Of a DNA stretch of 27,896 nt, positions 13,961 to 14,381 are shown in pieces (the first letter of the stretch is position 1; each line of letters begins with the position of its first letter). The notes beneath the pieces are model-generated. The model worked only from the letters and a program-made list of their open reading frames with translations. It did not search any database and was not told the DNA's origin. Origin of the DNA: Escherichia coli (GTDB taxonomy: Bacteria > Pseudomonadota > Gammaproteobacteria > Enterobacterales > Enterobacteriaceae); assembly GCF_003334255.1 (NCBI RefSeq), contig NZ_QOWU01000061.1. One strand, written 5' to 3'. A program made the position numbers and the translations under genes.

Positions 13961-14381
13961 GCTTTATCGAAGCAAAATAAGTCAGACGATAATTTATCGT
14001 TAATACTGGTCGGTTTTACATAAATCGACCAGAGAATAAGATATTACTGTTGATGCTTCTGCTAATTCATTATTTATATTTATAATTTCAATTTTATCTA
14101 TAAAACTAACTATATAAATAAACATAAACATGCCGTTGTGTTCGCCCTTTGATTAGCAACTCTGGTTTTCTTTCTTAGCTGAACAATCTGGTTATAGCGT
14201 GCGGACTGACCGTTAAATTTCTCCATCTTACTGGATAACACACCATGAGCTGCTACCTTTAAAACACCTGAATGTCAACAGGTTAACTCGTGCCATATCG
14301 TTATAATCCCTTTGATATTAGATGCAAATTAAGGTCATATATAGCCTTATCGATAACATGGTTAATTTTAAGGATAAGAAT

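Follow-up and report, generated by a model that had tools for sequence, protein, structure and literature searches.

The AT-rich yoaB-yoaC spacer of Escherichia coli: a probable composite of an mRNA tail, an upstream region and a promoter within an Escherichia-specific islet

The stretch of DNA analysed here (27,896 bp; hereafter, the window) is E. coli K-12 DNA and corresponds to positions 1879752-1907647 of the strain MG1655. Within this window, the genes yoaB (13616-13960, plus strand) and yoaC (14382-14681, plus strand; DUF1889), both taken from the RefSeq annotation, are separated by a spacer of 421 bp (13961-14381; MG1655 1893712-1894132), which has yoaB as its upstream border and serves yoaC. 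The GC content of the spacer is 32.5%, as compared to 50.6% for the whole window, and the 100 bp with the lowest GC content of the entire 27.9 kb (14031-14130, 18% GC) are located in the spacer. Moreover, only 0.2-0.3% of all 200- and 400-bp windows in the 27.9 kb are as AT-rich. The initial annotation, which had been made from the sequence without database searches, was therefore exact in describing a strongly AT-rich gap of 421 bp between the two genes. It had also called this gap the longest one without a recognisable regulatory motif. With respect to length, this statement holds with a qualifier only, because the gap between yobD and mntP is longer (428 bp, the only one in the window), but contains a Mn2+ riboswitch. 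The riboswitch in the mntP leader, which belongs to the yybP-ykoY family, is located at 25710-25806 on the plus strand (41.6 bits, E = 7e-10); its score is below the Rfam gathering score of 45, so that it is missed by a default scan and found with an E-value threshold. With respect to regulatory motifs, the statement turned out to be incorrect, since a published sigma70/sigmaS-dependent transcription start, a ChIP-seq peak of YhaJ together with a motif, a YeiE binding signal and, according to the Term-seq data covering this locus, the 3' end of the yoaB mRNA all map inside the gap. The A/T-rich runs that had been taken for long tracts typical of curved DNA are indeed present in the spacer. However, they are mixed runs of A and T with homopolymers of no more than 4 nt and without helical phasing, and thus do not demonstrate intrinsic curvature of the spacer.

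The spacer is a regular constituent of the E. coli chromosome. It was found in 5412 of 5426 complete E. coli genomes, in 5357 of these at a coverage of at least 80%, and it is essentially always chromosomal and present in a single copy. Among the 20 records listed of the 5412 matching genomes, no RefSeq annotation lies under the spacer. The RefSeq record of MG1655 also contains no feature in the spacer, although small proteins that were discovered by ribosome profiling, such as yoaL, are included in this record. The spacer differs from the MG1655 sequence by a single mismatch, a T instead of an A at position 14000, and not one of the 5412 matching genomes has a spacer that is identical throughout. 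The T at position 14000 disrupts the palindrome TTATCGATAA, and this variant is missing from the best-matching genomes. In the 12 kb that were compared, the window and MG1655 differ at six scattered single bases (12175, 12948, 13861, 14000, 15088 and 16218).

Synteny places the spacer in an Escherichia-specific islet (13961-14800) that separates the two convergent genes yoaB and yoaH. Besides the spacer, this islet contains yoaC, the terminator region of yoaC and yoaH and the stub of a pentapeptide-repeat gene. The segment is absent from Salmonella enterica, Klebsiella quasipneumoniae and Enterobacter asburiae, in which yoaB and yoaH are also convergent and only 5, 0 and 11 bp apart, respectively. 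For instance, the junction of the two genes in Salmonella reads TAA-GCCGG-TTA. In all Escherichia lineages that were sampled, including E. albertii, E. whittamii and the cryptic clades, yoaC is located between yoaB and yoaH. The closest homologues of yoaC outside the genus, which were found in Buttiauxella, Citrobacter and Lelliottia, have unrelated contexts: the Buttiauxella gene adjoins fis-dusB and the Citrobacter gene is flanked by a diol-dehydratase-reactivase-like gene and a leuC-like gene. Furthermore, the GC content at third codon positions (GC3) of yoaC is 0.384, which is the lowest value among the 26 genes of the window (0.49-0.61 for the others). The initial annotation had considered yoaC to be AT-rich and the region to be possibly an older horizontal acquisition; the low GC3, the empty yoaB/yoaH site in the three other genera and the different locations of yoaC in three further genera speak in favour of both assumptions. 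In Escherichia sp. E1V33 (3390-3842, minus strand) and in E. whittamii, an intact pentapeptide-repeat gene of 150 codons is present between yoaC and yoaH. K-12 retains approximately the first six codons of this gene (IRIDFV; 14777-14793, minus strand), of which the ATG was lost by a 2-bp deletion. The stub beside yoaC implies that the acquired islet once contained at least two genes.

According to the comparison of genomes, the segment 13961-14800 is thus probably the remnant of a small islet that was gained by the ancestor of the genus Escherichia. The islet would have entered a site at which the convergent core genes yoaB and yoaH were separated by 5 bp, and the AT-richness of the spacer would then be the compositional signature of foreign DNA. 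In Kluyvera intermedia, an unrelated gene of 350 codons with a faint match to DUF7716 (3381-4433, minus strand) is located at the yoaB/yoaH junction, which suggests that the junction is a recurrent insertion site. A search for a mobile element as the origin of the islet yielded no phage match, and the matches in a plasmid collection were only mislabelled chromosomes and DUF1889 genes from Klebsiella. Insertions into the spacer itself have occurred in individual strains of E. coli. In the strain D72, an IS1A insertion is accompanied by a deletion, through which most of the spacer and the 5' portion of yoaC have been lost (3581-4345 of the D72 locus), and in the strain PT62, Tn6330 carrying mcr-1 and IS1 have been reported to be inserted between yoaB and yoaC. 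These two strains illustrate that the spacer is dispensable and prone to insertions. The loss of yoaC has been reported to sensitise K-12 to boric acid.

The first part of the spacer is the 3' untranslated region (UTR) of the yoaB mRNA (13961-14036, plus strand), which has a length of about 76 nt and is predicted to form three hairpins. The first 80 nt of the spacer fold with a free energy of -24.3 kcal/mol, as compared to -9.4 +/- 2.5 kcal/mol for shuffled sequences (z = -5.9). The third of these hairpins is CTGGTCGGTTT-TACAT-AAATCGACCAG with a stem of 11 bp (14006-14032, plus strand), which marks the end of the message. According to the entries for this locus in a Term-seq study, an RNA 3' end was detected under two conditions at MG1655 position 1893787 on the plus strand (Adams et al. 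2021, PMC7815308). By using the 61-nt context that is printed with this entry, the end could be placed at window position 14036, which is 4 nt beyond the stem of the hairpin. In the same entry, the end is labelled as 'orphan', its distance from the stop codon of yoaB being 76 nt. The hairpin is kept across six Escherichia lineages, in which three base pairs have been changed on both sides, and 88% of the cells in the alignment are paired, as compared to 23-44% when the partners were slid, a figure that comes from a small sample of six sequences but is in accordance with the mapped 3' end. However, a U-tract behind the hairpin is missing, the stem being followed by AGAGAAUAAG, and a terminator scan of the spacer detected no terminator. 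A canonical intrinsic terminator at 14006-14032 was thus rejected, although the Term-seq end considered here maps just past the stem.

The lack of a U-tract indicates that transcription of yoaB is probably terminated in a Rho-dependent or non-canonical manner. In the mechanism that we infer, the yoaB message would subsequently be trimmed back to the stem, and the covarying hairpin would set or protect the 3' end of the mRNA. The end of yoaB can be likened to the hairpin-defined 3' ends known from Term-seq studies, which arise by Rho-dependent termination followed by 3' trimming and lack a U-tract. Like these ends, and as far as the available Term-seq entry goes, yoaB has a stable stem of 11 bp, a 3' end 4 nt further on and compensatory substitutions, whereas the Rho-dependent step is assumed for yoaB. 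A weak transcription start in antisense orientation that is directed into yoaB has been mapped to position 13993 on the minus strand with 12 reads (Cho et al. 2014, PMC3923258; 1891768(-), coordinates converted as described below).

The distal part of the spacer at the other side of the hairpin (14037-14249) is the AT-rich upstream region of yoaC, a fast-evolving sequence with many indels. Its overall GC content is 32%, and that of its core (14040-14135) is 21%. In alignments with other Escherichia species, the region shows identities of only 43-68% with 24-145 gap columns, and in Escherichia sp. MOD1, about 170 bp of it are deleted while yoaC is kept. Despite this turnover of the sequence, the AT-richness of the region has been kept in most lineages.

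Two transcription factors of the LysR type have been located at the distal region in vivo. ChIP-seq experiments with YhaJ uncovered a peak at yoaC with P values of 8e-26 and 2e-99 in enterohaemorrhagic E. coli (EHEC) (Connolly et al. 2019, PMC6765310, SI Tables S3 and S4). The peak stands in the fourth row of the EHEC data as the fourth strongest, it was reproduced in the uropathogenic E. coli (UPEC) strain CFT073, and yoaC is listed among the known YhaJ-regulated genes (PMC6765310). The YhaJ data thus stem from EHEC and UPEC strains, and they were mapped onto the K-12 window by means of the CFT073 coordinates. The CFT073 summits at 2045445 and 2045463 correspond to the window positions 14022 and 14040. 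The YhaJ motif TTATAGATAAAATTGA that is given in the same tables (CFT073 2045511) lies at 14088-14103 on the minus strand of the window, with no difference between K-12 and CFT073. It is a half-site that satisfies the pattern T-N11-A, and a full TCA-N7-TGA site could not be found in the spacer. With respect to the transcription start of yoaC at 14266 (see below), the centre of the motif is located at about -170 and the summit at about -226 to -244, and the motif is 66 bp off the summit. LysR-type regulators classically bind around -65, next to the -35 region, and neither the YhaJ motif nor the YhaJ summit occupies such a position at the yoaC promoter. Like the promoters of the YhaJ regulon (yqjF, ybiJ, yhaK, yhhW and ygiD), yoaC shows occupancy by YhaJ in vivo, a T-N11-A motif and a listing as YhaJ-regulated. 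In contrast to these promoters, which have a TCA-N7-TGA dyad close by, it has only the distant half-site. The second regulator, YeiE, was shown by ChIP-exo to bind upstream of RNA polymerase at yoaC, which served as an example of activation (Gao et al. 2018, PMC6237786, Fig. 3B). An imperfect inverted repeat with arms of 28 nt, which are 75% complementary and separated by 2 nt, extends from 14070 to 14127 with the YhaJ motif at its centre; it may be a chance product of AT-rich DNA. The IHF consensus is not enriched, since only one of the 38 matches with one mismatch in the window falls into the spacer. The middle of the spacer, about 214 bp, would be an AT-rich and loosely constrained upstream regulatory region at which YhaJ and YeiE are present in vivo.

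The last 132 bp of the spacer (14250-14381) contain the promoter and the leader of yoaC. A single transcription start of yoaC with 4268 reads has been assigned to sigma70 and sigmaS at position 1892041(+) of NC_000913.2 (Cho et al. 2014, PMC3923258, additional file 7). Coordinates of NC_000913.2 were converted to version 3 by adding 1976. This conversion was verified on two neighbouring promoters: the start of pabB falls 7 nt past TGcTAAATT and that of yoaH 7 nt past ATAATT. In the window, the yoaC start, which comes from one data set, is located at 14266, and the extended -10 element TGcTACCTT (14251-14259, plus strand) lies exactly 7 nt before it. The element is invariant in five of six Escherichia lineages. 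A C at position -13 is typical of sigmaS promoters, and its presence in the extended -10 element of yoaC is consistent with the use of sigmaS. The mRNA of yoaC has been reported to increase about 2-fold upon entry into the stationary phase in O157:H7, where it clusters with osmC and yeaG. In comparisons with other Escherichia species, the block consisting of promoter and leader is 88-92% identical, the MOD1 lineage being lower with 80%, and indels are very rare. The conservation of this block equals or exceeds that of the coding sequence of yoaC (84-88% identical). Furthermore, all 15 differences between the spacers of K-12 and CFT073 are confined to 14000-14217. The initial annotation had pointed to a TTATAAT hexamer that resembles a -10 element. 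The motif TATAAT does exist at 14302-14307 on the plus strand and is conserved in Escherichia, but it occupies positions +37 to +42 within the mapped yoaC mRNA and is not the promoter that gives rise to the mapped start. It could act as a secondary promoter of yoaC, and no start that would originate from it is reported in the data set with the mapped start (Cho et al. 2014, PMC3923258). A scan of the spacer with a promoter consensus was uninformative, yielding two promoter-like matches versus 3.4 expected.

From the mapped start, a 5' UTR of about 116 nt can be deduced for yoaC (14266-14381, plus strand). The leader is not significantly folded (z = 0.32), and it was rejected as a structured element, an alifold consensus over four genera having an energy of -1.2 kcal/mol with zero compensatory pairs. 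It ends in the block GGTTAATTTTAAGGATAAGAAT (14360-14381, plus strand), which contains the Shine-Dalgarno sequence AAGGA. The first 20 nt of this block, GGTTAATTTTAAGGATAAGA (14360-14379), are nearly invariant in the four genera Escherichia, Buttiauxella, Citrobacter and Lelliottia, whereas the encoded proteins are only 66-75% identical. A search for structure or covariation in the 20 nt gave no result. The block could bind a translational regulator, for instance at a candidate CsrA-like GGA site. Longer reading frames of yoaC that start from the ATG at 14322 or at 14358 were also considered and rejected, as neither the start codons nor the reading frame are conserved, and it follows that 14382 is the real start of yoaC. 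Taken as a whole, the last 132 bp would provide yoaC with a conserved promoter of the extended -10 type, which serves both sigma70 and sigmaS, and with a 116-nt leader that ends in a highly conserved ribosome-binding region. Downstream of the yoaC start, a bicyclomycin-sensitive 3' end in antisense orientation to yoaC appears at 14646 on the minus strand (MG1655 1894397) in the portion of the Rho-dependent table that covers this locus (PMC7815308); it presumably belongs to a yoaH transcript that reads past the shared terminator.

Altogether, it is probable that the spacer is an ordinary composite of three parts within an Escherichia-only islet, namely the tail of the yoaB mRNA, an AT-rich upstream region and the promoter and leader of yoaC. 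The feature is real but ordinary, and its parts are already largely documented in public data sets. This reading has to be weighed against others, which start from the AT-richness of the spacer. According to the initial annotation, the spacer would be curved, H-NS-bound DNA by which the acquired yoaC gene is silenced. The foreign origin suggested by synteny and the GC content of the spacer fit this idea, as do the IS1 and Tn6330 insertions, which are common in AT-rich DNA. Moreover, seven of the 53 matches to the H-NS nucleation motif TCGATAAATT in the window (no more than two mismatches) are found in the spacer, which makes up 1.5% of the window, and one of them, at 13991-14000, agrees in nine of ten positions. 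However, this enrichment is what AT-richness alone predicts, and phased A-tracts are absent. In addition, the transcription start of yoaC was covered by 4268 reads, as compared to 5-365 reads for most of the neighbours, is assigned to sigma70 and sigmaS, and resembles in strength the start of yoaB with 5522 reads (PMC3923258). With such a strong start site and no low expression in the wild type, yoaC is not silent under standard conditions, and xenogeneic silencing as it had been proposed is not supported by these data; we regard this explanation of the spacer as unlikely. The yoaC islet does share the foreign synteny, the low GC and GC3 values and the frequent H-NS-like motifs with AT-rich islets that are silenced by H-NS, and it differs from them in that yoaC is well transcribed from sigma70 and sigmaS under standard conditions and in that the islet is very small, with 0.84 kb, and has become fixed in Escherichia. 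The 21% GC core may still bind H-NS, with yoaC not being silenced. A related proposal, which seems improbable to us, would make the core at about 14040-14135 a retained nucleation patch for H-NS, and YhaJ and YeiE, bound 170-240 bp upstream, counter-silencers or architectural factors instead of activators acting from -65.

It could also be argued that the distal 214 bp are a functionless leftover of the islet, that the ChIP signals reflect opportunistic binding to AT-rich DNA and that yoaC is in fact controlled from the conserved 132 bp. The poor conservation and the many indels of the distal region, its loss over about 170 bp in the yoaC-bearing MOD1 lineage, the weak and off-summit YhaJ motif and the more than 100 binding sites of YeiE in the genome (PMC6237786) can all be understood in this way. 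Such a leftover would hardly explain why the YhaJ peak is the fourth strongest in EHEC and is seen again in UPEC, why yoaC is listed as YhaJ-regulated (PMC6765310) and reported to be activated by YeiE (PMC6237786), and why the AT-richness has been maintained in most lineages through the turnover of the sequence. We therefore consider the leftover explanation to be doubtful. Even more improbable by far is a gene for a small RNA or a small protein hidden in the spacer, of which the small RNA had been suggested by the initial annotation. The 3' end at 14036 is abundant and labelled as an orphan in the Term-seq entry (PMC7815308), and the yoaB 3' UTR of 76 nt is strongly structured, so that a stable fragment derived from it is conceivable. 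Against a small RNA gene, no match to Rfam was found in the spacer, neither at E = 10 (13000-15500) nor at the gathering threshold (whole window). A U-tail at the 3' end is typical of Hfq-dependent small RNAs, and the hairpin at the 14036 end lacks it. Beside this end, no other 3' end is listed for the spacer on either strand under the two conditions in the Term-seq entries for this locus, the next ones being the terminators of yoaH and yoaC (PMC7815308). As regards starts, there is no independent one in the spacer except for the antisense start with 12 reads (PMC3923258). Within the scope of these data, no RNA in the spacer has both a start and a 3' end of its own: the starts are that of yoaC and the weak antisense start, and the 3' end belongs to yoaB. 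As for small proteins, the initial annotation had seen no convincing small open reading frame with a Shine-Dalgarno sequence. Only those frames that lie in the nucleotide-conserved block next to yoaC recur across species, and those of the distal region are not conserved, just as its sequence is not. A frame of 34 codons (14290-14394) is kept in five Escherichia lineages. Its retention can be attributed to nucleotide conservation only, because every difference between K-12 and E1V33 that was read off the alignment changes an amino acid, and in E. albertii the frame is cut short by the deletion of 1 nt. The MG1655 record with its ribosome-profiling proteins, as mentioned above, also speaks against a small protein. 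What is left of the small RNA idea is possibly a stable fragment of the yoaB 3' UTR, which, with its 76 nt and capped by the hairpin, could accumulate as a ProQ-type stable RNA.

If the three-part composite is correct, each part of a conspicuous AT-rich gap receives an ordinary function from data that are already public, and the significance of the finding beyond annotation is slight. It places the mapped promoter of yoaC at the extended -10 element at 14251-14259 rather than at the eye-catching TATAAT. Moreover, two LysR-type regulators would have to act on yoaC over a distance of about 200 bp. Should the core indeed be an H-NS patch with counter-silencing, this would account for the odd position of YhaJ and YeiE and for the persistence of AT-richness through sequence turnover. 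As to its age, the analysis indicates that yoaC was acquired at the level of the genus Escherichia, into the yoaB/yoaH insertion hot spot.
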